A stretch of 64,000 nt of DNA from Amphiura filiformis (lineage: Eukaryota), in the NCBI RefSeq assembly GCF_039555335.1, contig NC_092646.1, forward strand, positions 36,987,911 through 37,051,910. Reading direction: 5' to 3'. Within the stretch, counting starts at the first letter, position 1. Each line of letters starts with the position of its first letter. The position numbers and the translations under genes are program-made. The notes under the pieces were generated by a model. That model made no database searches and was not told the DNA's origin. It saw nothing but the letters and a program-made list of their open reading frames with translations. Positions 1 through 51,037 of this stretch are shown piece by piece.

Positions 1-506
1 CGTACTGACGCGAGTATAGTCCCACCTTCGAGTAAAGTCCCACCCCAAATTTTCGAACAATTTCAGAAATTTAAAAAAAAAAAAAAAAAAAATTTGTAAA
101 GTTATTATTTTTTCGGCTTTGGAGTGTCCCAGGACCTAGGCCTAAATGCTAGGATCATTCATGGTTGACCTAAAAAAATAAATAAAAAAAATTCAAGATG
201 TTTTGTTATTTTTAATATGAAAATTGATAATTTGTATCAAGTTTTATTTGTTTTCATCTCAATTCACAAAAAGTTATACAATTGGAAATGCAATATAAGA
301 AATTTTCATACTCTATTAATGATTTCAAAATGCATTCAAATTCAATGCATTTTGAAATCATGACATGAATACAAATTATCAATTTTCATATTAAAAATAA
401 CAAAACATTTTGAATTTTTTTTTTTTGAAATTCGAGTATAGTTCCAACACCCAATTTTGAAAAATGTTCACTCAAAAACGGGGTGGGACTATACTCGCGT
501 CAGTAC
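1..506. mobile_element. Foldback-type MITE with 26-bp perfect TIRs.
   Basis: cgtactgacgcgagtatagtcccacc at 1-26 and its reverse complement at 481-506. The interior is itself palindromic around ~335 (aatgcattcaaattcaatgcatttt). The element may extend beyond the window start. Confidence 0.7.
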
Positions 507-880
507 GGTATTTTGCAAGATCTGGATGGGCTCTGTTCAGTACTTACATTTTGTCACTGTGGACCCATGTTGCAGTAGATAGCAAATCAGTACAGGAAAT
601 GAAAATGGGAGAAATGCATTGTGGGAAGTGTAAGATATCTTCACCGGTTGGTCATGCAGTAATCTGTAAATGTCGCTATTTTTAGGGGATGAAAAGCTTC
701 TTATTTTAAGATTAAATTAATGGCTTGTATCATATTTCCGTTTCAATTGAGTAGGCACGTAGGATTTTCCACCTTTGTTACAGGAATATATAGATAATGA
801 GCTTATGGGAGATGATATAAGAATATTGCATCAACAAATTGTGCTCCTGGAGCATTTTAATTTATAGTCTATGCTATAGT

Positions 881-1080
881 CGATTGACCTTTTCGGTAAA
901 TCCCATAACCCTTTGCGAGTACACCTGAGAACTCGTCATTTTACGTCACGCCGACTTGCAATGCGCAGTAATGATGTTCGATAAACGATGTGCGATCGGC
1001 GCAAAAAGCGTGGATTTAAAATGACGAGTTCTTAGGTGTACTCGCAAAGGGTTATGGGATTTACCGAAAAGGTCAATTGA
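881..1080. mobile_element. MITE with ~64-bp TIRs.
   Basis: attgaccttttcggtaaatcccataaccctttgcgagtacacctgagaactcgtcatttta at 882-945 and its reverse complement at 1018-1080. The core is CpG-rich. Confidence 0.75.
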
Positions 1081-1492
1081 TTGTTGATAAATATGAAATG
1101 TGTTATTGCTGAATGCATTTAGTTGAACTTGAAATTATATGTTTATCACAAGAAAAGTGTTCAATAAAATTAATAGTCATGTAAAAAGGTAAATATAATA
1201 ATATTAGTCACATATGTTTTCAGATGCAGCATATCTTGGCATATAATTATAACGAGGGCTGAAATTTGAACAAATCGGGGTTTATTTGTAAATAAGCTAG
1301 TGTATGGGTAAGTGCACTACAGAGAAGTCTAAGAGCATTTGGGCTTAACAAGAACTGTCTTTAAAAAGGATAACGCTTTTGATGAAGATCATGTTTCATA
1401 ATTTTGCATTGACAGGTACTTGGAATTAGAGCATTTAACCCTGCCAACTCTTGAAAATCACTGATCTGAACTGAAATTGGAACATTCAGGTC

Positions 1493-1996
1493 TACACCAG
1501 GCACAAAAAGAAACTCGTCAGTTATATTCATCCTTGTTGTTCAATAACTTGATAATTTTGGATTATTCTGAAACATACATTTTGTTAATTGGACTTTTCT
1601 TTCTCATTTGACACCCTGATCGTGAACATTGAGCAAGAATTGACCAAGATATGCGCCTCCAAACTCTCAAACCCCAAAATGAAAACTTGCAATTTTAACG
1701 ATTCAATTGTGCTTGTTACACTGTGTGCTTTTATTGATTGGCCCGTGGTGCTTGTATGCAATACAACGATGCGTTCACATTGAAAATCGTTGAAAATGCA
1801 ACTTTTGATTTTGGGGTTTGAGGCTTTGGAGGCGCATATCTTGATCAATTCTTGTTTGTTTTTCATGAACAGGGTGTCAAATGAGAAAGCAAAGTCCAAT
1901 TAACAAAATGTATATTTCAGAATAATCCAAAATTATCAAGTTATTGAACAGCAAGGATGAATATAACTGACTAGTTTCTTTTTGTGCCTGGTGTAG
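1493..1996. mobile_element. Long foldback (palindromic) element of ~500 bp.
   Basis: The arms 1493-1740 and 1790-1996 are reverse complements (tacaccaggcacaaaaagaaactcgtcag ... ctgactagtttctttttgtgcctggtgta). The mirror ORFs 1585..1899 (-) and 1589..1783 (+) are artefacts of this palindrome. Confidence 0.8.
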
Positions 1997-2718
1997 TGTT
2001 TTTTGAAGAGTTGGTATGGTTATCACTAAGGCCTGGCAAATTCTCGCTATTAACCAACTATATCTTGCTTTTTAAAAAAGTTTCCAAGCAGTGCACTTAC
2101 TATAAAAATGTTGCTCTATGACATAAACATTCGCCAAATTCCATTAAAATGCAGTTCCAACTTCGTCAAAGTGCAGAATTCAACAGCATTGCAAGCACAA
2201 GGTCGAGTGAAAAAGCCATGCTTTACTCAATAAAAACTGACATTTCATTTCAAATGAGTTCAAGTTTAGGCCAAATATCATTATATTTATTGAATTACTG
2301 GAATATTTTGACTATAAAACATAATTCAAGGTCAAATTTTTGTCACTATTTTCTTCGACACCGGCCGGCCGCGTCGGCAGGTTTGTTTATTTATTGTTCT
2401 GGACAATAGAGGGCAGCAAATTTTTGGATTTTTTTTTTTTTTTTTGATTTTTCACATTTTCGGGCGTTTTGAAAGCTTCTTATGCCATTTTTCGTGGAAA
2501 ATCTCGCCTTTCTCGCTTTTCAACATTTTGGATCTCGTTTTTTACTTCAAAAAAATTGTTTTTTTTTTGCCGGGGCCTAGTTATCACTAATCTATCAATT
2601 ATTTACACATTGCATCTTTAATTCAACTGTATTTTTTTCAAACATAACAGGAATAGGTTTTATATTCATCTTCGTTTAAATATTTGTTTGTTTCCCTTTT
2701 TTTTTTTTTCATTTCTAG

Positions 2719-2905
2719 GTCAGAAGACGTGCCTTCACATCCACGGTGTATTCCCGTACATTTACATTCCCTACAATGGCACAGAACCATTGGATAAATA
2801 CACATTGCAGTTTGCAAACAGCTTAGATTTAGCCATCCAGGTATCCTTAGGGAGGGCATCATCAACAACGGAACATGTTTTCAAAGTATCCCTCGTCACT
2901 GGAAT
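2719..2905 (+). CDS. REV3L: REV3L-like exon (partial gene). Encodes GQKTCLHIHGVFPYIYIPYNGTEPLDKYTLQFANSLDLAIQVSLGRASSTTEHVFKVSLVTG-.
   Basis: Acceptor tttcatttctag|GT at 2717-18 and donor GGAAT|gtaagt at 2906. The peptide closely matches the N-terminal region of human REV3L as I recall it (GQKTCLHLHGIFPYLYVPYDG...STAQHVFKVSLVSGM). The exon ends in phase 2 and the next exon completes the ATG codon. Confidence 0.85.
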
Positions 2906-2930
2906 GTAAGTATGAACCATCAAATCAGCC

Positions 2931-3135
2931 TTAACCCCATGAGAACTACCTGCCGATTGGCCAAAAATAAGTTTACATTATCAATTGACCCAATCAGCAA
3001 CATTGTTAGAATAATTTCACCACACAAAAAAATTGAGGTGAATTATTTCAAAGCTCCATTCTGATTGGTGATAAAAAGTGAAAATATCATGTAATTGACC
3101 AATCAGAGGCAATGTTAGATCGGCAGGTAGTTCAG
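2931..3135 (+). mobile_element. TTAA-flanked MITE (piggyBac-like), copy 1, 3'-truncated at the duplication junction.
   Basis: Begins ttaaCCCCATGAGAACTACCTGCCGATTGG. Contains internal ccaatcag/ctgattgg motifs. Ends ...gatcggcaggtag. Family TIR is ~24 bp: TTAACCCCATGAGAACTACCTGCC / GGCAGGTAGTGCTCAAGGGGTTAA. Confidence 0.8.
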
Positions 3136-3236
3136 TTTGCAAACAGCTTAGATTTAGCCATCCAGGTGTCCTTAGGGAGGGCATCATCAACAACGGAACA
3201 TGTTTTCAAAGTATCCCTCGTCACAGGAATGTAAGT
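3136..3236 (+). pseudogene. Pseudo-exon: a duplicated 95-nt 3' portion of the 2719-2905 exon, including an intact gtaagt donor.
   Basis: Near-identical to 2811-2911 (QFANSLDLAIQVSLGRASSTTEHVFKVSLVTGM plus gtaagt). It is preceded by ...gtagttcag|, a potential acceptor. Its length of 95 nt is not a multiple of 3. Confidence 0.8.
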
Positions 3237-3255
3237 TTGAACCATCAAATCAGTC

Positions 3256-3460
3256 TTAACTCAATGTGAACTACCTGCCGATTGTCCAAAAAGAAGTTTT
3301 CATTATCAATTGGCCCAATCAGCAACATTGTTAGAATAATTTCACCAGGCAAAAAAGTTGGGGTGAATTATATGCAAAGATCCATTCTGATTGGTGATTA
3401 AAGTGAAAATATCATGTAATTGACCAATCAGAGGCAATGTTAGATCGGCAGGTAGTGCAG
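3256..3460 (+). mobile_element. Same MITE, copy 2, inside the tandem repeat.
   Basis: cttaactcaatgtgaactacctgccgattg ... gatcggcaggtagtgcag. Confidence 0.75.
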
Positions 3461-3561
3461 TTTGCAAACAGCTTAGATCTAGCCATTGAGGTGTCCTTAG
3501 GGAGGGCATCATCAACAACGGATCATGTTTTCAAAGTACCCCTCGTCACAGGAATGTAAGT
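3461..3561 (+). pseudogene. Second pseudo-exon copy, again with the donor retained.
   Basis: Third unit of the 325-bp tandem repeat, slightly more diverged (gatctag, cattgag, ggatcatg). Confidence 0.8.
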
Positions 3562-3580
3562 ATGAACCATCAAATTTTCC

Positions 3581-3802
3581 TTAACCCATGAGAACTACCT
3601 GCCGATTGGTCAAAAAAAAGGTTTTCATTATCAGTTGGCCCAATCAGCAACATTGTTAGAATAATTTCACCACACAAAAGAATTGGGGTGAATTATTTGC
3701 AAAGCTCCATTCTGATTGGTGATTAAAGTGAAAATATCATGTAATTGACCAATCAGAGGCAATGTTACATGTGTAGATTGGCAGGTAGTGCTCGGGGGGT
3801 AA
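3581..3802 (+). mobile_element. Same MITE, copy 3, with a complete 3' TIR.
   Basis: ttaacccatgagaactacctgcc ... gattggcaggtagtgctcggggggtaa. Confidence 0.8.
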
Positions 3803-6459
3803 GCCAGAAAGCAACATGCTTGAATTAAAGAAAAAATTCTACTGTTTGTATACTTATCATATGAAAAACTAAGCCTGATACTGTATCAGTATCAGTTGGC
3901 CGTTATAATAAAAAAAAAACACTGGAGGTTCACTGTTTTGGATCCTATGAGTAACAATCCATTATGGAGGATTTCCCATCATACACCTGGCTATGCAGAC
4001 TATTTACCCTAATGCCCCAGACAAGCGCACAGACACACTTTGCCACGGGGGTCTAGCTTGGCTGGCCAAGTTTCTGTGACCATGACTGTTTGCATGATGA
4101 TGCAATCGCATCACATGGGATACCTGCATGTGCAGATACTTTGTGAATTGAGCTCTTTTGATACTTGTTACGGTTAGGGTTAAAAAATGCAAAAACAAAG
4201 AAAGGCAAACCTTTTTTATGAAAGCAGTACCATTCGTCTAGCTTTGAGTTTCTTACATAAACCAAGACATCAGACTTGATGAGCACAAAAAGCACAAAAT
4301 CAATGTTACGTGAAAATTGTCATTTCTATAGTACGGTATATACTCTACATATCAAGATATGCCTTGCACTAGGGCTGCACGACACACACCGACACCGCCT
4401 GGCTAATAATTATTTGGTGGAGCAGAGACACTAAAATGAATACACGGGATCGATACACGTGAATTGCTATGCACGATTTTGATATCAAACGAAAATCGTC
4501 CGATACTGGGTTAGAAATTGATGAATATCTCCATAAATGAATTTTTCTCAAGAAACCAGATGTGGTCTCATACACTTGAAAATACGTGTTGAACAGATAT
4601 GATAGTCGCTAGAATGCGCTTTGAAAATTGGCCGTGCGCTTTGAACTCAAAATTTGACCATTTTATATTGCGTTGGTCCTACAGCGTGCAGCGTGTAGTA
4701 CAGCTGCACTCACTGTAGGCAGTATAAAAGTCGATGACCATTGAACTCAATGGGGTATACAAGCTTATTCACGCACAACCAAGATCGATTACCCGGCTAT
4801 TGTGAGTAGCCTTAGTTATGTCCCTCGACTAATTATTAGTTTTAAAGAGCTTTAAAGGTTTGAACCAAATGGCTAATCGTGGCTGTGGATTCAACCTACC
4901 ATGGTGATTCCTGCCATGAAGATATAGGGTCGATGACACTGTGCGGCATAGGCTTTTTTAGTAGTTGACTATTCGCCACCCAAATAGTCGCGGTTACGAC
5001 TATGGCCAACTATCAAAGGTCAAAATGTCCTAAAGTTCAAGCTTACTTTTTTTGTTCAGAATACACTTAAAAACACATTCACTGCATTGGTGTTCCTGTC
5101 GAAATGAGGGTTCTTCATAACCATAACAAATGAATGCAAATGGCGAACGTCACTAGTACGATCAGCACATCGGAACATTTTATTCACAACAATAAGGCTG
5201 TACGTATTTAAGCAAAAGGACAACATGACATTGAATATATACAGGAAGGAGTAATAGGTAAAGTTATAATTAACTTTCACAAAGATTTTCAAGGTGGTAG
5301 CACAAGTTCTTAGACAATTTTTAGCACCTTTAGTACCTGTCTTTACTTCAATTTTGTTGCTTGTAAGTTGTTGAACGTTCAGGAATAGTCGCCAATTGAC
5401 AATTATTAGTCGTAAGTCCCGACTATCGCCAAATAGTCACAACCTTCACTATTGGCGACTTAGTCATTCAGGCCTAGCTTGCACAACATGATGAAAAGCA
5501 CTGAACAAATTTTAAAGGCACTGCAAACTGTATCAAATTAAGTAATTGAAACCGAGGTATGTGACATTTTCTAAAAATATTAAAAATATAAAATCGCTAT
5601 TTAATTTACATTTTTGTGCTACTAATGGAAAGGGGCTTATGTGAACTTCGTAAAAGATAATCTGAAGCCAATAGCTTGTTGGATCTAGGTCTGTAATAGA
5701 CACATAATTTCTAATTCAACACTTCATCAGGGAAAAAAATATGACAATTGACACGTGTCGAAACTCGTAATGAGTTTTAAAAATGCTGAAAAAGTCAATA
5801 GATAAGCTTGAAATAACGCCGATATGAGTTAAGATTCGTTCTACTTCCGGGTTCTGGTCAACTTTGGGAGGTAATTTTCGACTTACCGATGAAAACATGA
5901 TCATACGGTAAGCTTATTTGGACAAAATAGCATTAGAAATTTCATTTTCTTCTCTTTTGATATGTGTCCTAAAGTGTTGAAGAAGGACAATTTATTTTGA
6001 CATGTCGGATTTAGGGTCATATCGACGATAATACGACAGTCGATAACAGGCATAGTTGGATCTGGGAGCAAGGCATTAGTCAGACGGGTGGCTTTAGGGT
6101 GTCCAAAATGGTCAAAAATACCTTATTTTTCAAAATCAGGGTGTCCACTTCCTATTCACTCCATTATAAAAATCAAAATTTTAGGGTATCCAAATTTAAA
6201 AACAGGGCGTCCAAATGACACCTGGACACCACTCTGGCTAATGCCTTGTCTGGGAGCTATTGCCAGCAGCCATTCCAATGAAGATCAACTTATTTATAGT
6301 TTATAAGTTGAATAGCCTCACTGCTCAAAATATTTATTGCATCATGCATGTGCTCTCAATCGATATCTCACTTCCTCTAAAAGCGTGTTCACATCTAAAT
6401 AGAATGTGCTATCTTCATGTAAATACTTAGGAATATTACTAGATACTAACGAAGGTATA

Positions 6460-6850
6460 AAAAGAGTAAGATTTAAAGCCTTAATGTATGATTTCCGTTG
6501 AATTTTAATTTTGTTATTCTTTATTCAAAATGTTGAAATAATATTAGTAATAACTTAGGAAGGGTTGATGTCCATTTAAAGTTGAAATAACAAGGTAAAG
6601 TGAAAGAAACCCCACTGGTTATTTTGGCTATTTAACATGCAGTTCTATGGGCGGACATATTATCATAATTTTTAAATTATGATAATATGTCGAACTTTGC
6701 TCTGTTTACCTACAAAGACAACACATTTGGCCGATTCCATTTAGGTGCAAGTTGGGACATGTGTAAACATTACAAATATGCAAAACAATCAGGTTTGAAA
6801 AAAATAAACCAATTTCATATTATAAGATCGTACATTATGGCTTTAATCTT
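6460..6850 (+). mobile_element. SINE/MITE-like dispersed repeat, family X, copy 1.
   Basis: ~80-85% identical to 27860-28350 and, in reverse, to 57940-58300. Shared blocks include gtgaaagaaacc(a/c)cactgg, ccatttaggtg(c/t)aagttgggacat and gtaaacattacaaatatgc. Confidence 0.7.
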
Positions 6851-7346
6851 TCCCTAGAGAAGTCCTTTTCAAAAAGGACTTTCTCTAGGGAAAGATTAAA
6901 TCTTACTCATGTTTACTGACCTAGAGTACCAAGTAATTTCAACTCGAAGATATAAAAAGATTGTCTAGCAATAGCATCATATAATCACCTCAAACAATTT
7001 CTGCAATGCAAAAGAGCAAACATTACAACAAAAATGAGAATTTTTTAATGCTTATGTACATTTTTTTGTAGGGTCCATTTTTCTTCACAACAGTGAATTA
7101 TGGACACTGACAACAAAGTTAGAACACAGAGTACCTAGATGTTTTTCAAAGAACTCTTCTTAGAACAATATCCATCACAAAATTAGACAAAATGGCAAAT
7201 GCTGATCTATATACAAACACAAATACTGAACCATGGAGCAAAACCATCAAAAGAAGACGACTAAACTGGGTACTGGGTAGGTCATCTATACAGACTCCCA
7301 GACGAATCTCCAACAGTCAAGCCCTAATTGGCAAATAGGCTTACAT

Positions 7347-7962
7347 TTTAAAGGGGTACTACACCCCTGGCCAATTTTGTGCCTATTTTTGCAATTTTCT
7401 CATTGATGACAAGTAAGATATGTATATTATAGGGGCAAGGATTACAACTACTGCACTGGAAATTTTATTTCAGCACAGACAACACTTGTGGAGTTACAGT
7501 CAAAAATGAGGGAAAACCACTATTTGATCAATAAATCAATAACTACTTGTCTTGAGTTGCTGAATTTTCAGTGCAGTAGTTATATCTTAAGCGCTTCAGA
7601 CTCCGAGTATTATGCGTACAATATTGTATGTACAATATATGCGTTATTTAATCTATTGCCATTCTATTTCCAGTAATGTTTAAGTTCTAACGAATGTTTG
7701 ATGACGAAAAATCGATAATATGTTACATACAATATCTAGCAGAAATATATTATCGATTTTACGTCATCAAACATTCGTTAGAACTTAAACAGTACTGGAA
7801 ATAGAATGACAATAGATTAAATAACGTACATATTGTACATACAATATTGTACGTACAATAAAAAGTCTGTATACTGCTTTACTTGTCACCAATGCGCTAT
7901 AATTTTTGAGAAAAATGCAAAAATAGGCACAAAATTGGCCAGGGGTGTAGTACCCCCCTTAA
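7347..7962. mobile_element. TTAA-flanked foldback element of ~615 bp.
   Basis: ttaaaggggtactacacccctggccaattttgtgcctatttttgca at 7347-7392 and its reverse complement at 7917-7962 (...cccccttaa). The inner palindrome is 7640-7870. A terminal fragment ggtgtagtacccccttaa also occurs at 54433-54455. Confidence 0.8.
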
Positions 7963-8124
7963 ATCGGGATATATAATAATCACAGAATCAGCTATAAGTT
8001 AATGTCACCATAATAAAATGTTAACTCCACAGATCTCCAATCATATTAACTAACTACTGAGCTCTACTGGTTGATACAAATGATACTTTTACATAATAAT
8101 ATAATTAGAATACATTGTATCAGT

Positions 8125-8480
8125 ACCGTATTTCGTCAAATAAACGCCCCTGGGGGTGTTACATTTTCCCAAGGGGGGGGGGGGCGTTTATTCAAGGTCA
8201 ATTATAGAGCGATAATTCCCGTTAAAATCATTAGGTAAAGTAAAAACACACGATAAAATGACGAACTATGAACTAGAAACACTGACTTCTGGCTCACTTC
8301 CGAGTTTCTGATCCAGATTTTCGCCAATTATTGACACTATTATCGACCATGTGCGCAACTTGGTAAGTTTACTACACAAGATAGCATGGAAATATCGGCA
8401 TTTTTGAAACATCTTGGTTGAAAAAAGTGGTGGGGGCATTTATTTGAGGGGGGGGGGGCAACTATTTGACGAAATACGGT
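8125..8480. mobile_element. MITE of ~355 bp.
   Basis: TIR accgtatttcgtcaaata...gcccc at 8125-8150 and its reverse complement at 8455-8480. The subterminal G/C homopolymers are mirrored. Confidence 0.7.
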
Positions 8481-9469
8481 ATGTGTGGGAGTAAGAGATG
8501 GGTCTCACTCTGATTGTCCCAAAAGGTTATGGTATGTGAGTAGGAACAACAGCTACCTGTCTATGTATGACATGGCCTAGAAGAAAGTGTGATGGTCATT
8601 GGTACAGGGTTATGCGGGGTTATGCATTTTTTTGATGATTCTGAGACATCACTCATGTCTTGAAATCAGACAATAGTACATGGCAATGTTCAATTAATGT
8701 AATGTTAATTACGGATGCACTGCAGTGGAGAACTTAATACATATGTATAAACAGCTTTTAACAATTTTTTTATAATAAAACATTGTCTTCAGAGAAAGTC
8801 ATACACCTACATATAATTTAGTATAATGACTCTTGTGATAGTATGTTAGCACACCCATTCTTTTCCCCAGTCTCTCGACAACAATGCATAAATCTGATTT
8901 AACGAATCACTGGTGGAGCCTGCAATTGCATTCTATTGATGAGCTCATTACAAATGGCATTAACCCATCTATAAATACTATTATAATGGAAGGTATTGTT
9001 TGGTTTGAGCTCTAAAAGGTTTGGCATTTTAGAGCAAGAACAAAATGCTGGGGAAGTCATCTGCTTGGGGAATATTTATTTACTCCATTCAGAGAATGGT
9101 GCTGGAATTTAAATTAATAGTCATATTGTACAAAATGTACCGTCTTAGATATGAAATTGGTTAATTTTGTTCAAACCTGATTTTTTTGGGCATATTTGCA
9201 ATTAATTTTTACATATGTCCGAAACGACACCTAAATGGACTGAAGGTATACAGAGCAATGATTAAGACATCAAATTCCCAATAAAACTCCACTTTGATGA
9301 GGCAAATTAGCCAATGTGTGCGGTTTCTTAAAAATACCTTTTTATTTTTGCATACATTTGACCTGATTTGACAGAAACATTTTCTGACAGTTATATATAA
9401 ACTATTATTTCAGCATTTTGAGTGTAGAATGACAAAATTAAAATTTGATGGAAATTTTACATTGCTATA

Positions 9470-9640
9470 ATGATCAACTCTAAGTTGTGGCACCAGGATT
9501 TATTTTTTTTTGGGGGGGCAAAGTGAATTTCTGGGGCGGGGTAAAATCAACAAATTTTGCCCAAAATTGCCGCAAAAAGCGGAAATTTACATAATTTGGG
9601 GGGTTTTGCCTCGAAACAGGGGGGAGGGGGCAAGAAGAAT
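9470..9640 (+). repeat. Dispersed repeat. A second copy lies at 16290-16450 in reverse orientation.
   Basis: ggcaccaggatttttttgggggggcaaagtgaatttc...ttgccgcaaaaagcggaaat matches the reverse complement of 16300-16445. Confidence 0.65.
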
Positions 9641-9789
9641 ATCCACGTAATGACTGCATATAATAAATGTCTTTGAGGTTCAGACCAGGAATTCAGACAG
9701 TGCATGTAGTCTTCAATTTGGAGATCATTGTGCACTGCATAATAATAACTTTCAGTCACACCAATTTTCAAAAAAATATTTTAAATCTA

Positions 9790-10060
9790 GATGATTTGTG
9801 TGGAGGTGTGTGTGTTCTTTCCCCTCAAAGAGGCTAAAAAACCAATCACTAAAAGCTTGACAAATTAAAAAAAATATATCTGACATTGCAAATATATTTT
9901 GAAAATTTTAATTTTTCCCCCTCAAAGAGGCTAAATGTTTTTGAAAAAATTAATCACCAAAAGCTTGCAAAATTGGAAAAAAATCTGACATTTATTGTAC
10001 AAACATATTTTGAAAATTTTTCCCCCTAAACATTTCAGTCAAAATTGATCTACTTTGGCC
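9790..10060. repeat. Tandem repeat, ~110-bp unit x ~2.5.
   Basis: ttttgaaaatttt..ccccctcaaagaggctaaa..aatcaccaaaagcttg(a/c)caaattgg(a)aaaaaa..tctgacatt recurs at ~9830, ~9900 and ~10010. Confidence 0.7.
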
Positions 10061-10502
10061 AAAAAACGGCTGATTTTAATTTCACACAGCTAAATAAATT
10101 CCCCATAATGTAAAATTGGGGTCAGTCGGGCCCGTCGAATAGAGTTTTTTCCATCACCAAATGCAAAAATACACACAGTAACCTTTGGATTTTCTCTGCA
10201 TTTTGCATCTGCAACTCTCTTCATTTCATTTTGCCCATTTCTCCATTGTGAGTGTTTTTGTTGCGTGCCGGTTTCCAAGATACAGAAAAATAATCAAATC
10301 AGTCTGAGCTATATGAAAATGCCTTGTTGATTGAATGTTGATTGAGTTGTGACACGCAACTTGCTATTCAAATTGTAAGCAAGCTATATCATACAACTAT
10401 ACAAGACAATGAAAGGTCTTGTGGATCTAGCGGACTTGCTGCTCTTGTTTATCCAGTACTGTCAAAATGGGAATTTTTTGGGAACACTAATTTTCATGCT
10501 AA

Positions 10503-10660
10503 AGGGATCAGATAGCAACATTTGCACAGTATTTTTTGTGGGGCTGAGAGCACATCAAATTGCATTCTGAATACGAGGAATGTCCTTCTTATATCAAATA
10601 ATTTTGATTTTTTTTTTTTAATTTGTGATATTTTGTGACATTTTATGGTATTGCTCTTAT
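10503..10660. mobile_element. Truncated (left-arm-only) copy of the long-palindrome FB family.
   Basis: cagtattttttgtgggg.tgagagcacatcaaattgcattctgaatacgaggaatgtcc..atatcaaataattttgatttttt matches the left arms at 29010, 45143 and 51104. Confidence 0.65.
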
Positions 10661-11231
10661 ATGTTTTATGGCCACTTTTGATCGATCATTGGAAAAGGGA
10701 TGTGTAGTCAATGAATTAGCCATCTTCTGATTTTTGGTGATTTCTTCCCAGGATTTCTTTACTACTAAATTCAGTGAAATAACCCAAATTACAGCTATTT
10801 TGGGTGCTCCAATTGGACATCTTCTGATTTTGGGTGATTTCTTTTACATCAATTTTAGGTGCCTTTTAACTGTTGTCGCCACTTCGCGAGAATCTGTGAA
10901 TGAAAATATTAATTTGCAGCTTCGCGCGAAGGCATTCATGTATACTTCCATCAAAATATCGCCGAGTATGGCAAAGAATTGTTGCCCGCACTGTGCTTTC
11001 TTATAGAACTTCTCTGGCCTACACCCCAAGTTGAACCAAATACAACTCTCCGCAAAGCGAAGAAACCTGGTCCGCGAAGTTATAAAATTTCAGCTAAAAT
11101 TTCTTCACAGCCTGCAAAATTGCAGCCTCGAAGTGGAGTATACATCAGACTTTACAGCTATTTTGGGTGAATTATTTACTTCTATGTACTACAAATTACC
11201 CAACTATATTTTGGGTGCCTTTGATTGGTAA

Positions 11232-11447
11232 GGAACAAGCCAAAAGATCGATGACGTCCTATAAACGTAACTAGTTTAGTTTCTCAGCCGACCCCCTCCC
11301 TCCCTGCCAGAAACATAATAAAGAAATGTTGAAAATTATTCTTCAGACCGATGTTTTTGTACAAACGTAATCAAGTATTTTTACCCCCTCCCCCCTAAAT
11401 GAAACTAGTTTCGTTTATAGGACGTCATCGATCTTTTGGTTTGTTCC
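11232..11447. mobile_element. MITE with ~38-bp TIRs.
   Basis: ggaacaagccaaaagatcgatgacgtcctataaacg and its reverse complement (11232-11270 / 11405-11447). The same TIR (ggacgtcatcgatcttttggtttgttccctaa) recurs at 52426-52458. Confidence 0.7.
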
Positions 11448-11760
11448 CTAATTGGGCTACTTTCTCATCACCCACCACCCACTCTTTTGATGATGTGATG
11501 CTTGGCTGTATCTTTACATACACGACTGTAGACACAAAGTCATGGCAACCCTTTTATTATGTACTTCTGTACTACAAGTTCAATGAAATTACCCAACTAC
11601 ATTTTGTGTGCCTTTGATTGGTAATTGGGTGCATTTTTATGGTAATTGGGCTACTTTCTCCTCACCCACCACTCCCTTGATGATGTGATGCTTGCTGTAT
11701 CTCATAGACTACAAACGCAAAGTCATGGCAACCCTTTTTATTATCAATACAGTACCTTTC
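11448..11760. repeat. Tandem duplication, ~185-bp unit x2.
   Basis: taattgggctactttctc.tcacccaccac.c..cttttgatgatgtgatgcttg..gtatct....aca..c.caaagtcatggcaacccttttt occurs at 11448 and 11640. Confidence 0.75.
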
Positions 11761-12430
11761 CTTGTCTGCTTCATTCAGTGTAAACCTCTTTGTTGATTGA
11801 GCATCGATCACAACCACTTTAGGCTTTGAAGTACATGTAGCGTGTTAATACTGAGATATTTTATTCACTTTTTACATCACATGGATGGGGATATTATTAG
11901 TTTGCATGTCACTCATTATTAGCATTTGGCTGTGGTGTACAAATGTACATGGCATGTAATACAAACAATACTAGCATAACATTTTGAATTTTATCTTGAA
12001 ATTTTGAATTTTATCTTAAAATTGTGAATTTAACCATAAAATTATAGATTTTATCTTAAAATTATGAATGTTACCTTAGATTATGGGGGAGCCCCTAAGG
12101 TACTTGGGTCCTGACCAAAATTATTATTGCACCCCTCCCCTCCCCCATTTTGACATTATCACATTGACACTCCTTTTTTTTTCACCAAAAGACCAAATGC
12201 AAAGCATTTTTGGGCTTTGGACCCTAATCTGCTACATGTACATGTTAAATATTTTTTTTTTTCAGCTCAAACATTTTTTTTTTAAATCAGGGTTTTCTCA
12301 ATCCTGAAAAATGATGGCAGCCCTAGGCATACAGGTTCGCAATAAAGAGTTAGAATTATGAACAGAAAATGTATGGTCATGTAAATCATACTTGAAAGTA
12401 TACAGTATCAAAATGAATAATGATGCATGC

Positions 12431-12797
12431 CCTTAAGGTGGTTTTGGAGGCATTTTCTAGAAATTAGGAAATACTTTGAGCATGTTTTAAACAGATTATT
12501 TGCGTAGGGTAAAGTACATTGATCAATATGCCTTTTGTTTGAAGTAAATCGGACATATTTTCTTTGTATCTCATTGTTTTTATCAATAATCAATATAGTT
12601 AATGAGCTAAAAGGAGTGTACATATAAAGGTTCATTTAAAATATGTAATTTTTGCCAATATTTTGCTAATGTATAAATGTTCACGGTACTTTTATTTTGC
12701 ATACTTTTGCCCTGAAGTCTTTACCCTGCTCAATTAATAGCTGTTTAAAACATGCTCAAAGCATTTTCTAATTTCTAGAAAATGCCTCCACCTTAAG
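12431..12797. mobile_element. MITE of ~365 bp with ~55-bp TIRs beginning cTTAAgg.
   Basis: cttaaggtggttttggaggcattttctagaaattaggaaatactttgagcatgttttaaacag at 12431-12493, and its reverse complement at 12735-12797. Confidence 0.8.
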
Positions 12798-15700
12798 ATA
12801 TCATTTAGTGAATGGATGGGAGATGACTAATGTGAAACCTAATATTTGTATGCCCTATATGTGCAAACAAAACTGAATACGCAAATGCTATTATCAGCCT
12901 TAGATATGATATATTTGGACAAAGAAATGGTCAATCTAATGGCCTATTACAAATGTTTACAGTAAAATGATTGTATAAACAATATGGCCACTTGACTTGT
13001 TATTAAAATAAATTTTTGTTTTTAATCAGGGCTGGAAAAATGTGAATTTCCGGTACCCAATAATTTAGTGAACCATATTTCCTGTGGGAATTTCGCAGCC
13101 CATGCGCCGCCTTAGCTGCACCAGGGAGGTGTCTGAGGGGGGATGTGGCCCCCTAAGAAGCTGAAATATTTATAGAAATGACACCAAATGATGCGATTTG
13201 GTGCATTCTTCATATTTTGGAGCCATGATCAATGTTGTGTGTTTAATTATTTAAAAAAGTTTTTGGCAACTTAGCACATGATCCTAGCACATCAGTATAG
13301 GTCCAGTGGTTCTCCAAATTGCCAAAACTTTGAAAAAAAAACCCCAAAAAACATTTTGTTTATTTTTTTTTAATTTATTTTTAAATTTTTTTTCGGAGAT
13401 CGCCCATGAGCTAATCAAATTTCTCGCCCGCGGCTGATTTACCCAGTTTTTCAAGGCCTGATTTTAATATTGAAATGGCATCTAGGTATATGGCATCAAT
13501 GTAAATGTACATTTGAAATATTATGGGCATAAAAAAAGTGATATCCATCAAAATATATATATGTATGAGAATCAAATTTTTGTTTTTCAATGCCTGAAGA
13601 TGAGAAGGTCCTTTTTTGGCATAGAGGAGCAAATATTTCTTGAATCTGGGTTCATCTGCAACTGCATTGTTTCACAGTTACAGGTGCAAGGCAGTGGCAA
13701 GGTTGAAATGTGTGGCGGTTATCAAAATGTGGGGGCAGCCAAAATACAAATGCACCAAAATTGAAATTAAGCTAGATAAAGAAAAGCATAACCAGAATAG
13801 AAATTCTGTGGATTGTCTATTATCATTATATTTGATCCGATCAAGCAAAATCACTATTCAGTCTGAAATGCCCAGGTCCAATGCTCCACATTAGCGAAAA
13901 CCCGGCTTGTGCATTTATAGACACATCAACATCTCAGTAGAAGTGCATTACTTTCAATCTCATTTAAGTAATACACAGTTATTAACCTATATTCCTTACA
14001 TGTAAATACATTATCTAATGGCCCAGGAGATGGAAGGACAACTAATTTGAGGCCATTTTCAACAAACTCAGAGCAGTTTTCATTTTCAAACCCATGTGGA
14101 GCCAAAATTTGACCTATGATGTCACAATGTTACCTCTTTGTGCCATAACTCCATAACAAAACATTGTAGATAGGACAAACTATACTTATTGTAAATTCTT
14201 ATGACTAGAGGAACGAACGCATGTATAATATTATTTTAAACCAAGTTTGAGCAATTTTGAACTTGACCCCTGTGTAAAGTTCAACAACCTTTTTCCACTG
14301 TGCTGTTGAAATGCTTCCGTCACCTGAAGTGACTTTGCATGTAAAAGTGAGTGAATTTGGGCTGTAAAGCCTCAAAACAGGCTGAAAATAAATGAAAGTG
14401 CAGAAATTTGGAGTAACAAAATGTAGGAAATCAAGCAATGGCCTAAAGGCAGACCTGTATATCACTGCTATTAAAGGATGATTAGTACTACAGGCACTGT
14501 ATCTCTGCCAAATTTAACATTCGGGTTAACATTATTTGCAGGCCTGTAGCAAGGATTTTGTGTGTGTGTGTGGGGGGGGGTGCTGATTTTGAAAAAGTGG
14601 ACTTTTCCAAGGGGGAATTCTGTGTGAAAAGTAGACTTTCTGTAGACGCCTGATTATTTGTACGATAGTTACAGGAATCTATTTCTTGGAATTTTACAAA
14701 ATAAAAAGAACCAACAGATGTGGTGTGCTCGCTGATCAAAATTCAATATATATCATTTTTCAATTGATCACTAACATGTTTACTGAACCATAAATGATAA
14801 CACAGTTTCCATTCATAAATCTGCGAATATTGGTGTTAAAAAAATAGTTTGTTTGGCTTTTTCTCTTGGAATATCTACAGATACTAGTCTTGCACACCAA
14901 GGGCAGCTACATATATGTACAGTACAGGCCTATTTATTTAGAAGACCTTCTCCTTGACTTACAATGTGTACTCTGATTGGCAAACACAGAATCCTGCCAG
15001 TGCTTTTGATAAAAAATGTACAAACGAAATGCAAACTAACTGATTGTGAGATATATACAAATGTATGCTTGTGATAAATATTTTTTTTATATGGCTGCAT
15101 AACAGACAAGGTCAACATAATGTGATGCGATCAAGCAAAATCAGTCAGAACTCGGCAATCCTAGTTTTGAGATATGGGCCAAATAATGTGTGTAGGGGTG
15201 GAAAAAAATAAAAATTGACATTTTGCAAAAATGTGAGGGAAAAACATTCTTCTTTCACTTAAAAATATTTTTTGATGAAATTCCGAAGGGAAAACATTAA
15301 AAAAGTACATATTTTGACCCCTGTCCAACTTCGATAATTGTCAAAAATCGTGAAATTATTCCAAAAGAAGCTCGGATTTTAAAATGTTACAAATTTTACG
15401 AGTGCGATGGATGCATGAAATTCTTACTCTCGCAAATATTTCTGTTTTCTAGGAAATCATCATAAAATTGAAAAATTACACAAAAATTATTTGCTGTAAA
15501 AATGATCATTCAACGTAAAAGTCATGTATGCACGCTTTTGTTGCCTGGTCCAAACGAAAGACCTGTGTTATGTTTAGCGTTAGGGTTAATAAGCCTATAT
15601 TTTCTTTCATTGAGACATGCTTAACCCTAACTCTATGAAATCTTACAAAGCAAAATGACTGTGCATGCATGCATCCCATATGATGCCATGATGCAATCAG

Positions 15701-15944
15701 CCCAATTCATGTATGCAGTTTTATTGGCCGGGCCAGCGAAAGACCTGTGCCTACCGGTCAATGATCTAGTGCTTAGTACCCAAAGGATCTAAGGTTTGAA
15801 TCCCGGGGTGCCAAATAACTTCTTTGTTCATCTTCTCTCCTTTTTTGTTCCTTCCTTCCTTTCCGATAGCCAAAAACTACTTTTAGCGTTTGTTTTAAAA
15901 TTGTTACATTATCATTTTATGCTTTTGTTTTTCTGTTCTTGCAG

Positions 15945-16019
15945 GCCACTATATGGGTATCATTCCAAAGAGCAGCAGTTTCTCAAAATATACTTCTACA
16001 ACCCACTTATGGTCAAAAG
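15945..16019 (+). CDS. REV3L: REV3L-like exon: (M)PLYGYHSKEQQFLKIYFYNPLMVK(R)
   Basis: Acceptor ttcttgcag| and donor AAAAG|gtaagt. Matches human PFYGYHEKERHFMKIYLYNPTMVKR. Phase is consistent with the flanking exons. Confidence 0.88.
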
Positions 16020-19095: not shown

Positions 19096-19789
19096 AAACA
19101 TGTGTTAAAGGTAGGCCTATAATGGTAGACCTGTAAAAATACTTGTTTAGAGTCGGTTTTGAAAGTACGGTACCATAAAAGTGGAAAATTTTGCGCTCAA
19201 TTTTTTGATCTAAAATTTTTGTCATCCAAAAATGGAGACCCAAAATTTTCCAAATGTCTGGTCAGTCGGGTAAGGGCAACACAAAAATTTTGTTTGGGCC
19301 TAAAATTGTAACAGTCATCTGTATTGCTTGTAAAGTACATGTAGCACATTAAACATACATGAATGTGTGCGACAGTGCACATGCCGACAGAAGGGGTGTG
19401 TGTGCATATGTGTGAAATTGATTGCTAAATTAATGTGAATTTCCATGCAAGAGATCATTGATGATTCAATGAAGCTCTCTAATTTTGCATTGTTGGTAGT
19501 CGATTGTATCGGTATTTTGTCCATTGTGCAGAGTATATAAATATTGTACTGTAGATGCAGGTGATAAAATTAATTGTTTTCTTTGCCAATTTGAAGGAAA
19601 AAAATTTCATTTTTCATAGTATTTCATTCCAGAATATTTTTAAATTTTGTTAAATTTTAAGTGCTGTGATCTAATCCTATGTATGGTATTACAAACCGGG
19701 CTATTATGAGTCTCAGAGCCATGAATCTGTATTATTTCATTTCAGCATTTTTTACTTAATGTTGTAAATATTTGTTTGTTTGTTTTTAG

Positions 19790-19871
19790 AGCGGTTGATT
19801 TACTACAAACTGGGGCTGTTATGAATAACGTCTTTCAACCATATGAAGCACACGTTCCTTTCATCCTACAG
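19790..19871 (+). CDS. REV3L: REV3L-like exon: (R)AVDLLQTGAVMNNVFQPYEAHVPFILQ
   Basis: Acceptor tgtttttag| and donor CAG|gtgagt. Matches human ICELLQSGAIMNKFYQPHEAHIPYLLQ. Confidence 0.85.
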
Positions 19872-19890
19872 GTGAGTAGCTATTACACTT

Positions 19891-20150
19891 AAAATCCACA
19901 CTCCCCCTTTGGAAGATTTTGGAAATATCTACCACAGGGGGAGTATGAATTTCAAATGGAATGAACATTTTAGGCAATTCCATTTGAATTTCATACACCC
20001 TCTAAGAAAGAGTCAACCTGTATCTTTCACAGAGGGAGGGTGAATTTCAAATAGATCTACTAATGTGTTCATTCCATTTGAAATTCATACTCCCCCTGTG
20101 GAAGATATTTCCAAAATCTTCCACAAGTGGAGTGTGGATTTTAAGTGGAA
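19891..20150. repeat. Hairpin-repeat family H, 3 units.
   Basis: Each unit has the form attccatttgaaattcatactccccctgtggaagat - loop (atttccaaa) - atcttccacagggg.agtgtg.atttcaaatggaat, giving a ~35-bp perfect stem. The locus starts 20 bp after the donor of exon 19790-19871. Confidence 0.85.
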
Positions 20151-20670
20151 AAGCATGTCTTCCCAAATTCCTTTGAAAGTTTTAAGAACAAAAAGGGTGA
20201 CATGCTTGAACCTTCAAAGACCCTTGTTGATTCAACTTTGCAAAAGATTCAGAAATAAAAAACCCTCCCAAATATCTTATTTGGAGTACACCGCTTGTGT
20301 GGGAGTTTTATAAAGTCACATCTTCCATTGGACATGCTTCACTAGCCTCACCTGAACCAGGGACTGTCTTTTGGAATTTGAAGGAGAGCATTAAATAGCT
20401 CTTCTGGAGCCTTCAAGGAGAGCTGTTTCGAGCATTTACAATAGAATGTAAGGGGAGAATGGTCAACTAAGGAGAGCTAAAAATCACTCACCTATGTCAG
20501 ATTTAAGGAGAGCAGTAGAGTAATGATTGCTATCGCTCTCCTCAAAAGGCAGTACCTGCTGAACACAGTCAATTCAGTTGTACAATTTTCCAAGAGACAT
20601 ACTCATATTCAACAAAATCTACTTATCATCATGATCATTGAGCACAATAAATTATAAACATGTTCAACAG

Positions 20671-20950
20671 GCTATTCCATTTCAAATTCACACTACCCCT
20701 GTGGGAGATTTAGTTTAAGTCTGCTACAGAGGGAGTATCAATTTTGAATAGAATAGGCAGTTCACAGTTGGGTAACTTCCATTTGAAATACTCACTCCAG
20801 TTGTGGAAGATATAAGTAAAACCATCATATGGGGGAGTAAGCATTTCAAAATAATTAACTCTGACCAATTACTTTTGTAAAACATACTCCCTCTGTGGAA
20901 GATATTTCCAAAATCTTTCACAGGGGTAGTATGGATGTCATATGGCATAG
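20671..20950. repeat. Family H, 3 units.
   Basis: Same ccctgtggaagat / atcttccacaggg core. Confidence 0.8.
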
Positions 20951-22039
20951 TGTATTGGACAGGCAGGTGCTGGGAAAATAGATGGACTTCCAGGTATTCA
21001 CTCAGCACTTTACAGAACTAATTTTAGCCAGAAACCTTTTGAAAAAATATTATTTTCAACACGACTGCTTGGATGTAAAACCAGCCACTAAAAGCAAAAT
21101 TGATAAAGACTAGTAACTTGTGATGCTATTTGGAATGGTGTTATCTGTGGCAAAATAAAATGAAATCCTCACAAAAAGAAAGTCCCCCACTTCCAGCAAA
21201 ATGTGTTAAATTATATATTAATTTGAGCCAAACTGAACCATTTTGAAAAAAAAAAAGGAATTCAAATTGTCTATGTATTATACATAGACCATTTTGAAAA
21301 AAAAAAAAATCAAATTGTCTATGTATTTTATATTTCTACATAGCTCAATCCTAATCGTTTATTTAGTACTAACTGGAGATAACAGAAAAAGTTCACTATT
21401 CGACTTAATTTCTTGAAAAAAGAGTCAAAAACATGCATTTTCAGCATGTTTTCTGACAACCGAGTTACAAATATCAAAGGCTTGGGACACTTTTTTGTGT
21501 TACTTTAATTAAATGATTGGTTATAAGAATGGAAGATGTCTTTTCCAAAAATTAGTGCCAAGTTTTTAGTTGTTGGACCAATTGAAGTACTACATTTCTG
21601 TAGAGTTCAACACAGTCTCAGACCTGCCAACTGTCCGCATTTTGCGGGACAGTCCCGCAAGATTCGAAGTTTAAAACCCGAAAATGCGGGCGCCCCGCAT
21701 TCCGCATTTCCGTCCATTGAAAAAAATCATTAAAAAAACCAACAAATTGTCCGATATCGTCTGGCACGAAAGAATTGCGGCGGCGCTATACCTATTTAAA
21801 TGCATTGAAAATGTGGTGGCGCTATTAAAAGCCTGATTAGCACGTGCTTGCGTGTTAAATTCACGTTGCCCATTGTAAATACATTGGATATGTATGAGCG
21901 TTGCCATTAAAAGGAGGCTATTATTTTAGCCTCATCGCTTGGTGCATGGTTCATTGATGCAACATTGTATAACCGATGAATTGCGTATCTTTTTCGGATT
22001 GGTGAAGAGGTTATTTTCAGCTTTTCACTGTGTCAATGT

Positions 22040-22444: not shown

Positions 22445-22529
22445 TTTTTAATGGACTACAATTTGTATGGCATGAACATGCTCAATGTAGCTGCTGTCAA
22501 GTTCAGGAAAACAGAAGAAGATAAACAAG
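22445..22529 (+). CDS. REV3L: REV3L-like exon: FLMDYNLYGMNMLNVAAVKFRKTEEDKQ
   Basis: Acceptor ttcctccacag| and donor CAAG|gtatat. Matches human LFIDYNLYGMNLINLAAVKFRKARRKSN. Ends in phase 1. Confidence 0.85.
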
Positions 22530-22537
22530 GTATATAA

Positions 22538-22755
22538 TTAACCCCATGAGAACTACCTGCTGATTGGTCAAAAAGAAGTTTTCATTATCAATTGGACCAA
22601 TCAGCAGCAACATTGTTAAAATAATTTCACCACACAAAATAATTGGGGTGAATTATTTTCAAAGCTCCATTCTGATTGGTGATTAAAATGAAGATATCAT
22701 GTTATTGACCAATCAGAGGCAATGTTAGATCGGCAGGTAGTGCACAGGGTGTTAA
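22538..22755 (+). mobile_element. Same MITE family, full length, flanked by TTAA on both sides.
   Basis: ttaaccccatgagaactacctgctgattgg ... gatcggcaggtagtgcacagggtgttaa. It starts 9 bp after the donor of exon 22445-22529. Confidence 0.85.
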
Positions 22756-24798: not shown

Positions 24799-24830
24799 GT
24801 AAGAGCTTCAACCTCTTTACTGTAACGGGA

Positions 24831-25235
24831 CTATTCCAGTTGAAATCCTGACACCCATAGGAAGACATGACCTTAATCTCCCACACAGGGGGTGTAGATT
24901 GAAATTCACACAAGCTGTATGGGAGATTAAAGGCATTTCTTGCATAGGGGTTGTATTGATTTCAAGTGGAATCTCTTTGAAGGAACTAAAGTAAATTCTA
25001 AAAACTTGGTCAGTGATGTAATGAAACACTTGCCCGATGGCCCCAATGGCTCACCACCCAGTTCAAATCCATACACCCTCTAAGGAATACAAGACCTTAA
25101 TATTCCAAGTAGGGGAGTGTAGATTTCAAACGGAGTCACCCATTCTGGTAACCCAATTTGAAATTCACACTCCCTCTGTGGAAGATAAAAGCCATGTCTT
25201 CCATAGGGGGTGTAAAGATTTCAACTGGAATAGCA
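24831..25235. repeat. Family H, ~5 units, of the atgaccttaat-loop subtype.
   Basis: Starts 33 bp after the donor of exon 24663-24798. The ORFs 25037..25420 (+) and 24817..25029 (-) are artefacts. Confidence 0.8.
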
Positions 25236-28350: not shown

Positions 28351-28668
28351 AATTATGGTAAGTACTAGCAGGAGACAATGAAAGATCAGATTCATTGTCA
28401 AAGTAGTGCATAGCAGAATTATAATTTGTAGAAGATGCTGCAAGATGAGGAACACCTTGAGGAAAGCATGTGAAAAAAACACTGAAATTGAGCTTAAATT
28501 GAAAATTGTATGTGTGTTTCTTGCATTTTTGTTGGTAAAGAATATCTCTACAGTGCCTGATAAAAATAATGTCATTAAGCAGTAGATCAAAGTCATTTGA
28601 AACCATAGTGATCCAGGCCAAGTTTATTATTATGCTGGATAATTTGACATGCACTTGCTCTGGCAATG

Positions 28669-28852
28669 CGCTATTCCAATTAAAATCCTTACACCCTACG
28701 GAAGGAAGACATCGCCTTAATCTCCCACACAGGGGGTGGATTTGAAATGAAGTCACCCTTCATGTAACAACATTTAAAATCTACAACCCCTGTGTGTGGA
28801 AGATTAAGGTCATATCTTCCATAGGGGTGGATGGACTTCATCTGGAATAGCC
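28669..28852. repeat. Family H, 2 units.
   Basis: Same structure. The ORF 28349..28756 (-) is an artefact. Confidence 0.8.
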
Positions 28853-29009
28853 TAATACCCTGATCTTTTTTAGTAAAAATAATGTCGCATGAAAGACGGA
28901 AACCACTCAGCCTTGTAGTATATAAGAAATCGTTAGATCCTATTTTCTTTTAATATTTGCTGTAGATATCGTCTCTGACTTCTGATTTAAGGAATCAGAT
29001 AGTAAGGTT

Positions 29010-50823: not shown

Positions 50824-51037
50824 TTAACCCCATGAGAACTACCTGCCTATTGGTCAAAAAGGAGTTTTCATTATCAATTGGACCAATCAGCAACATTGTT
50901 AGAATAATTTCACCATGCAAAAATGGGGGTGATCGAATTATTTGCAAAACTTCATTCTGATTGATTAAAATGAAGATATCATGTAATTGACTAATCAGAG
51001 GCAATGTTAGATTGGCAGGTAGTGCTCAAGGGGTTAA
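50824..51037 (+). mobile_element. Same MITE family, full length, flanked by TTAA on both sides.
   Basis: ttaaccccatgagaactacctgcctattgg ... gattggcaggtagtgctcaaggggttaa. Confidence 0.85.

Follow-up and report, generated by a model that had tools for sequence, protein, structure and literature searches.

Tandem triplication of an exon end, its splice donor and a piggyBac-type MITE in the REV3L gene of Amphiura filiformis

INTRODUCTION

Tandem repeats can arise by a described general route in which microhomology first mediates a tandem duplication that then expands (bioRxiv 10.64898/2026.02.28.708716; PMC8639346). Where such an event falls on a gene, splice signals can be copied along with the coding sequence, and tandem segmental duplication across an AGGT motif has been described as a way of creating introns (Hellsten et al. 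2011, PMC3265369). Two further kinds of sequence bear on such loci. Transposable elements of the piggyBac superfamily are recognized by their TTAA target and C-rich terminal residues (PMC5381638). Decoy exons have been described in long introns (PMC6097662; PMC7373989), and those described depend on both of their splice sites (PMC7373989).

Here, we describe a tandem triplication in the brittle star Amphiura filiformis that touches on all of these systems. It lies in a 64,000-nt stretch of contig NC_092646.1, hereafter the window, and each of its units combines the end of an exon, the splice donor of that exon, a short piece of intron and a miniature inverted-repeat transposable element (MITE).

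As in the microhomology-mediated duplications of S. pombe (PMC8639346; bioRxiv 10.64898/2026.02.28.708716), the copies stand head-to-tail without spacer, and a short motif flanks the segment that was once single copy. The route from one copy to two and then three, with one and the same junction, is common to both. The unit, at 325 bp, exceeds most of the duplications described so far in length, and the microhomology is only 3 to 4 nt. The event is also old (6 to 7% diverged), with its mechanism read from a scar, and one of its breakpoints lies in a hairpin-forming transposon. The likeness to the case of Hellsten et al. (PMC3265369) is that the duplicated material would be spliced out, leaving the mRNA unchanged, and that splice signals were copied together with exon sequence. 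In that case, however, an exonic segment was duplicated and a new intron formed between the copies, whereas the segment described here spans an existing exon-intron boundary, its copies land in the intron, and no new intron results.

The transposon shares with piggyBac-superfamily MITEs, among them those of corals (PMC5381638; PMC2872659), the TTAA duplication, inverted repeats of the CCC...GGG kind, a length of ~215 bp, the absence of coding capacity and the presence of several dispersed copies. Unlike the usual members of that group, it contains three CCAATCAG octamers, and in two of the three array units it is present as a copy truncated by the duplication. The copied exon ends resemble pseudoexons and decoy exons (PMC6097662; PMC7373989) in that they are exon-like, carry a strong donor, lie in a long intron and would cause a premature stop on inclusion. 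The described decoys have two functional splice sites and are tied to the retention of introns; the copies here have no 3' signal, and its place is probably masked.

RESULTS

The host gene

Judged from its sequence, the host gene is REV3L, the catalytic subunit of DNA polymerase zeta, an assignment that follows from a POL3_N match, matches to yeast Rev3 structures, domain-bearing relatives and a collinear set of exons. The peptide encoded by the joined exons 2719-2905 and 15945-16019 matched the Pfam domain POL3_N over its full length (E = 1.1e-28, profile positions 1-81 of 81) and also matched structures of yeast polymerase zeta (7lxd and 6v8p, Rev3). A protein search with the exon peptide returned six distant REV3 fragments that bear REV3_N and POL3_N (PF24065, PF24055); no Amphiura protein was among these matches, and no protein in the collection spans exon 2719-2905. 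With the N-terminus of human REV3L as the tblastn query, which served as a probe only, collinear exons were found on the + strand at 2719-2905, 15945-16019, ~19743-19874, 22445-22529, 34987-35088 and 40361-40486, with a further match within a giant exon.

This giant, low-complexity central exon begins at ~59963, within a stretch that stays free of stops for at least 1,355 codons, from 59936 to the end of the window. Over 99% of its length, this stretch (59936-64000) matches XP_072019148.1, an "uncharacterized protein" of A. filiformis, at 100% identity. The RefSeq gene model at this locus is fragmentary and does not contain exon 2719-2905. A brittle-star match (P0008, GCA_013332995.1) is a 5.3-kb contig with the giant exon only.

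The exon end is single copy in three distant REV3 loci, L005 and L006 (both from an ENA assembly) and L007 (JGI metagenome), which share 55 to 68% protein identity with the locus studied here. In L006, the exon ends at the same boundary and GTAAGTATGA comes next, which indicates that the boundary at 2905 is ancestral and the duplication probably derived. For this reason, and because the copies lie in a pre-existing intron, we dismissed intron gain by segmental duplication (Rogers; Hellsten). An exact 22-mer of the exon fragment found no match among the metagenome contigs.

Architecture of the array

TRF reported a single array at 2806-3767 (period 325, 3.0 copies, 92% matches, score 1653), and alignment placed the unit starts at 2811, 3136 and 3461, in agreement with the three tandem units proposed in the initial annotation (Table 1). 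Every unit contains, in this order, 95 nt of exon end, the donor AAT^GTAAGT, 25 nt of intron, TTAA and the MITE, and the contents first attributed to the units were confirmed. The exon part of each unit is identical or nearly identical to 2811-2905, although the homology truly begins at the AG of 2809-2810 and thus covers 95 to 97 nt. The period had been given as exactly 325 bp; this is correct for units 1 and 2 but not for unit 3, the extra 8 nt of which derive from an 8-bp insertion (TACATGTG) together with one +1 and one -1 indel. The previously given array end, 3785, is nominal only: the homologous breakpoint lies at 3791, and the MITE itself ends at 3799.

BLAST of the exon and intron part against the window recovered two extra copies only (E = 2e-55 and 2e-49), and beyond the array no other copy of the exon fragment was present in the 64 kb. 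The MITE part, searched in the same way, gave E = 1.7e-76.

Table 1. Features of the array, its host exons and the related MITE insertions. Positions are those of the window; a caret marks a splice site.
Feature	Positions	Strand	Details
Authentic REV3L exon, 187 nt	2719..2905	+	encodes (G)QKTCLHIHGVFPYIYIPYNGTEPLDKYTLQFANSLDLAIQVSLGRASSTTEHVFKVSLVTG(M); acceptor ttcatttctag^G
Authentic 5' splice site AAT^GTAAGT	2906..2911	+	opens the 13,039-nt intron 2906-15944
Next REV3L exon	15945..16019	+	encodes (G)PLYGYHSKEQQFLKIYFYNPLMVK(R); joined to donor 2906 in normal splicing
TGC at the left, exon-internal breakpoint	2806..2808	+	seen when the three junctions are aligned with the end of the array
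Unit 1, 325 nt	2809..3133	+	authentic exon end and donor; TTAA 2931-2934; MITE 2935-3133, minus its last 8 nt
Unit 2, 325 nt	3134..3458	+	exon copy 3136-3230; donor copy 3231-3236
Unit 2, transposon part	TTAA 3256-3259; truncated MITE 3260-3458	+	from alignment
Unit 3, 333 nt	3459..3791	+	exon copy 3461-3555 (3 amino-acid changes); donor copy 3556-3561
Unit 3, transposon part	TTAA 3581-3584; MITE from 3585	+	MITE with 8-bp insertion; from alignment
Sole complete MITE of the array, 215 nt	3585..3799	+	27-nt terminal inverted repeats CCCATGAGAACTACCTGCCGAT and ATTGGCAGGTAGTGCTCGGGGGG
Independent MITE copy	22538..22755 (element 22542-22751)	+	TTAA on both sides; 88% identity to the unit-3 copy
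Second independent MITE copy	50824..51037 (element 50828-51033)	+	TTAA on both sides; 85% identity to the unit-3 copy
Pseudo-acceptor before copy 2	before 3136		41% pyrimidines at -20 to -4; percentile 18.5 of 632 intronic AGs
Pseudo-acceptor before copy 3	before 3461		35% pyrimidines at -20 to -4; percentile 7.6 of 632 intronic AGs
Four real REV3L acceptors			82-94% pyrimidines; percentile 98.7-100 for the two ranked, 2719 and 15945

The transposon component

By its hallmarks, the repeated element is a MITE of the piggyBac superfamily: it has a TTAA target, CCC and GGG ends, a length of ~215 bp and no ORF, and it forms a long hairpin. The family occupies three independent insertion sites within the 64 kb, with elements of 211 to 215 bp that start with CCC(C) and end with GGG(G). 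The inverted repeats of the unit-3 copy are 81% complementary over their 27 nt (inverted pair I2). All three array copies have TTAA on their 5' side, and the 3' target-site copy of the unit-3 element has degenerated to TAAG (3800-3803). Units 1 and 2 lack the last 8 nt of the MITE (TCGGGGGG), because the duplication junction cuts the element there. As single-stranded DNA, the unit-3 MITE folds at -40.3 kcal/mol, and the z-scores of the MITE hairpins against shuffled sequences were -6.0 (unit 3) and -7.7.

No transposase ORF was seen in the 64-kb window. A scan of 2400-4300 against Rfam gave no match, and the repeat is accordingly neither a known RNA gene nor a SINE of such descent. An exact 20-mer of the MITE had three matches among the metagenome contigs; with only 20 to 31 nt aligned, we attribute these to chance and do not regard them as true relatives.

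Only 8 nt separate the independent copy at 22538 from the donor of REV3L exon 22445-22529 ahead of it, and two of the three insertions of the family in the window thus sit shortly behind REV3L donors, at 8 and 25 nt. Such donor-proximal insertions would be unexpected if insertion were random and could reflect a bias of insertion or of retention near donors; with uniform insertion, fewer than 1% of copies should fall within 30 nt of a donor.

Junctions between units

Alignment of the junctions showed that TGC at the exon-internal breakpoint recurs at the right breakpoint in the 3' inverted repeat of the MITE (3789-3791). At the internal junctions it is retained at 3456-3458 and now reads TTC at 3131-3133. 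The exon at the breakpoint reads ...ACATTGC^AGTTTGC..., with the caret here marking the breakpoint, and the intact MITE end reads ...GGTAGTGC^TCGGGGGG. Both internal junctions (3131-3135 and 3456-3460) are alike in structure and read ...GGTAGT(G/T)C AGTTTGC..., the junction 26-mer being GGCAGGTAGTGCAGTTTGCAAACAGC. The microhomology is therefore TGC and not the GCAG proposed at first, or else TGCA, should the A of the copy at 22538 have been present in the ancestral MITE. By our own calculation, at least 3 nt of microhomology are expected at a random junction with a probability of ~0.05. Three nucleotides are thus barely above chance, which leaves classical end joining as a possible route.

The same MITE-to-exon junction in all units, with the MITE cut 8 nt short in units 1 and 2, bears out the earlier proposal that the MITE inserted before the duplication took place.

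Divergence of the units

In pairwise comparisons, the units differed by 19, 20 and 23 mismatches plus gaps, or 6 to 7%; units 1 and 2 are separated by 19 mismatches plus 2 gap positions. The units had been described as differing by a few substitutions and hence as no assembly stutter; the differences proved more numerous than that and include indels, and a divergence of this size makes stutter very unlikely. The expectation that the units would not be exactly identical was likewise borne out. With the two independent MITE copies as outgroups, ~9, ~11 and ~15 private events could be assigned to units 1, 2 and 3, respectively, and one site only was clearly common to units 1 and 2 and derived when judged against the outgroup MITEs. 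Because the units share hardly any differences, the three copies appear to be of about equal age, each having drifted by 3 to 4.5% since. This star-like pattern would fit one event or two alike, and it gives no support to unit 2 as a chimera of units 1 and 3, the signature of unequal exchange.

Within the exon part, unit 1 has two private changes, both synonymous, unit 3 has five, three of which change an amino acid, and unit 2 has none that changes an amino acid. These small numbers are consistent with selection on copy 1 only.

The published A. filiformis genome was sequenced with nanopore reads at ~100x and first assembled as diploid, with a consensus error of ~0.07% and a heterozygosity of 3.22% (PMC11310086), figures that belong to the published assembly, which may not be the one that contains the window. 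Measured against them, the divergence between units far exceeds the error rate and is comparable in magnitude to the divergence between alleles of the species. Taken together, these data indicate that the tandem duplication is old.

Splice signals around the copies

Donors were scored with generic splice-site frequencies, and the scores rank sites within the window only. The three donors of the array scored equally (PWM score 7.56, 8 of 9 consensus positions). Among the 653 GT sites of the intron, 12 scored at least as high as the authentic donor, including the two array copies; the other ten indicate that orphan donor-like sites are common in this intron.

The pseudo-acceptors present a different picture (Table 1). 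Each copy had been reported to be preceded by cag and followed by a strong donor, and the donors indeed equal the authentic one, but the cag (junctions read cag^TTTGCA) comes without a polypyrimidine tract; the acceptor of exon 2719-2905 has 94% pyrimidines. Each pseudo-acceptor also has another AG 5 nt ahead of it. In both minimum-energy and centroid RNA folds, the 16 to 18 nt before each of them are predicted to make up the 3' arm of the MITE stem and to pair with the 5' inverted repeat. No GT follows directly after the pseudo-acceptors, and a recursive splice site was dismissed on that basis.

By the description of decoy exons in Parra et al. 2018, the copies have the 5' splice site, by sequence, and lack a functional 3' splice site. 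The absence of a polypyrimidine tract, an AG that is not the first after any branch region and the predicted pairing within the MITE stem would make them poor exons. The initial annotation regarded them as decoy exons that the spliceosome must ignore; given acceptors at the 8th to 18th percentile, the upstream AG and the predicted pairing, they seem better called orphan donor copies. The frame shift that it expected on inclusion was confirmed: inclusion of either copy, or a switch to either downstream donor, leads to a stop within 0 to 5 codons, and for inclusion the stop comes after 5 codons.

DISCUSSION

Origin of the array

We infer the order and mechanism of events from the junctions. A piggyBac-type MITE of ~215 bp would first have entered a TTAA situated 25 nt beyond the exon's donor. 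A 325-bp segment, reaching from the exon interior (after the TGC at 2806-2808) to 8 nt before the 3' end of the MITE, would then have been duplicated head-to-tail, with the join made at 3 to 4 nt of microhomology by template switching, slippage or microhomology-mediated end joining. The hairpin-forming MITE may have favored this duplication, for example by promoting fork stalling. The breakpoint falls 8 nt within the element, away from its TTAA/GGG boundary, which makes a transposase-made break at the junction unlikely.

Slippage or unequal exchange, as initially suggested, is plausible overall, but homologous unequal exchange is ruled out for the first duplication, for which only 3 to 4 nt of homology were available. 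For the step from two to three copies it is likely. As the second junction is the same as the first, the third copy would have arisen from the first duplication, soon after it, by homology-driven slippage or unequal exchange. Each unit would then have drifted by ~3 to 4.5% to give the divergence now seen.

Probable consequences for splicing and alternative explanations

In our reading, to which we assign a probability of roughly 80%, the array is a lineage-specific intronic structural variant that follows the exon of the REV3L N-terminal domain, and its extra copies are inert passengers. The exon has a single 5' part, and the first donor is in its normal place, so that 2905 should still splice to 15945; the two extra units would leave with the 13-kb intron and are most likely ignored passively. 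Rare use of the extra exon fragments would give a premature stop and mRNA decay. The copied donors may see low-level use, being of equal strength and having the same 95 nt of exon sequence upstream. If such use were regular, the copies would act as decoy or poison exons, or as competing 5' splice sites, that tune the level of a mutagenic polymerase, with three donors and an exon-derived enhancer context recruiting U1 and yielding REV3L isoforms with a premature stop or a retained intron. The equal donors, the near-identical 95 nt ahead of each, the stop that any use would bring and the precedent of decoy exons in long introns (PMC6097662; PMC7373989) all speak for this possibility. We nevertheless consider it unlikely, since described decoys need both splice sites (PMC7373989), and the pseudo-acceptors here rank low, have an extra AG just upstream and are predicted to be base-paired. 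Moreover, copy 3 has gathered amino-acid-changing and other substitutions at about the rate of the MITE, with no sign of constraint, and ten further GT sites in the intron equal the copied donors in score.

The reading of inert copies in an intron also has to be weighed against two explanations that concern the array itself. One is that the locus in truth contains only one or two units and was expanded in the assembly by stutter or by the merging of haplotypes. The copy number does rest on one assembly, and the species is highly heterozygous, with an assembly begun as diploid from nanopore reads (PMC11310086). Yet the differences are spread along the units and far exceed the consensus error, the 975-bp array is much shorter than nanopore reads, and haplotype merging would not yield two junctions at which the inside of a MITE meets the inside of an exon; an artefact is accordingly very improbable. 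The other regards the array as a composite mobile element in the making, in which a piggyBac-type transposase could move a 540- or 865-bp Pack-MITE-like unit together with pieces of the REV3L exon. What makes this conceivable is that intact 5' inverted repeats with TTAA stand at 2931, 3256 and 3581, that one intact 3' repeat ends at 3799, and that host exon fragments and donors lie between a MITE 5' end (2935 or 3260) and that repeat. Within the 64-kb window, however, neither the exon fragment nor the junction recurs elsewhere and no transposase gene was seen, the MITE copies are 12 to 15% diverged, so that the family looks old, and the 3' TTAA is degenerate. We hold the chance of such mobility to be very slight.

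It is similarly quite improbable that the array is anything beyond a scar, whether as a U1 donor sink that diverts REV3L pre-mRNA or as a nascent vehicle of the Pack-MITE-like kind. Were the former true, part of the REV3L pre-mRNA would be sent to unproductive splicing or intron retention; were the latter true, an exon piece bearing a splice donor would be able to spread.

Implications

The array is an ordinary structural variant and a well-documented instance of known processes, namely, MITE insertion, microhomology-mediated tandem duplication and expansion, here combined within one intron, and it leaves current understanding unchanged. A breakpoint inside a MITE, as found here, can put host exon sequence between transposon ends. 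For gene prediction, the locus is a trap. It also provides a natural example of a tolerated tandem duplication across an exon-intron boundary, in which the unique 5' half of the exon fixes the copy in use and the extra copies land in an existing intron. With three identical donors in the same upstream context, the REV3L locus of A. filiformis is a natural test of 5' splice-site choice.

MITE insertions and splice donors

The TTAA-flanked, piggyBac-type MITE carried by each unit of the 325-bp array has two further independent copies in the 64-kb window (22538-22755 and 50824-51037). Given the 8-nt and 25-nt spacings between element and donor in REV3L, the DNA polymerase zeta catalytic subunit gene, a splice donor is found within 30 nt of the MITE at two of the family's three independent insertion sites. 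Were insertion uniform, the chance of such proximity would be ~1e-4, a rough and post hoc estimate. The MITE 3' end also forms, together with a degenerate target site, a donor-like sequence (GGG/GTAAGCC, 3796-3806), which scored 9.42 against 7.56 for the authentic donor, using generic splice frequencies that serve for ranking within the window only.

Similar 5' flanks were observed at both copies outside the array (50806-50827 and 22522-22541), reading GCAAGGTGTTTGAA/TTAA and ACAAGGTATATAA/TTAA. A preference for certain targets could explain this likeness, as could chance or flanking sequence copied along with the element; no open reading frame was found upstream of the 50824 copy. Each array MITE contained three exact CCAATCAG octamers, on both strands (2990-3756), giving nine in the array, with four in the 22538 copy (22560-22716) and 19 across the whole window versus 2.3 expected. 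As a motif, the octamer is CCAAT-box- or Y-box-like.

Features of the window
Feature	Position	Strand	Remark
Donor 2906 to the TTAA before the array MITE	2906-2934 region		MITE 25 nt 3' of donor 2906
MITE copy of the array's family	22530-22755 region		8 nt 3' of donor GTATAT (22530), REV3L exon 22445-22529
Palindromic MITE-like element	1-507		arms 26 nt, 100% complementary
Palindromic MITE-like element	880-1080		arms 64 nt, 97% complementary
Palindromic MITE-like element	1492-1996		arms 212 nt, 92% complementary
Dispersed repeat	~20044-20310, 20727-21017, 24820-25417, 28352-28949, 30765-30995, 37967-38312, 38481-38891	both	
Intronic satellite block	31436-33377 and 34287-34355		motif TGCTATCTACTGAAGATAGCACTGAAAACTTGAC
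Stop-free fragment	46143-46478	-	DUF4817 helix-turn-helix domain match, E 1.8e-7
In-frame tandem repeat, 180 bp x3	62990-63523		inside giant REV3L exon

Other repeats and transposon remnants

Three more palindromic MITE-like elements were seen just 5' of exon 2719-2905. The dispersed repeat probably represents a family of unclassified transposable elements; it has a stop-free frame reading ...IHTPxVEDxxxxFHRGxxDFKWNS..., for which a Pfam search returned no significant match. The DUF4817-matching fragment is probably the leftover of a transposase N-terminus, and the satellite block is built on its motif with nested periods of 59, 80, 137, 161, 223 and 279 nt.

REV3L gene model

The in-frame repeat encodes three 60-residue units (ETCADDVLT..KADEGSLNKDVATFERPQAG..SEME..GNSGWETFSSTDDIMTPVKT), and the same 180-bp-encoded 60-residue repeat is found in XP_072019148.1, a RefSeq uncharacterized protein of A. 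filiformis to which the stop-free stretch of the giant exon (59936-64000) is 100% identical over 99% of its length. This protein (1515 aa) begins at 56230 and spans the central part of REV3L only (56230-64000), and exon 2719-2905 occurs in none of the proteins searched. The publicly available gene model for the REV3L locus thus appears to be fragmented.
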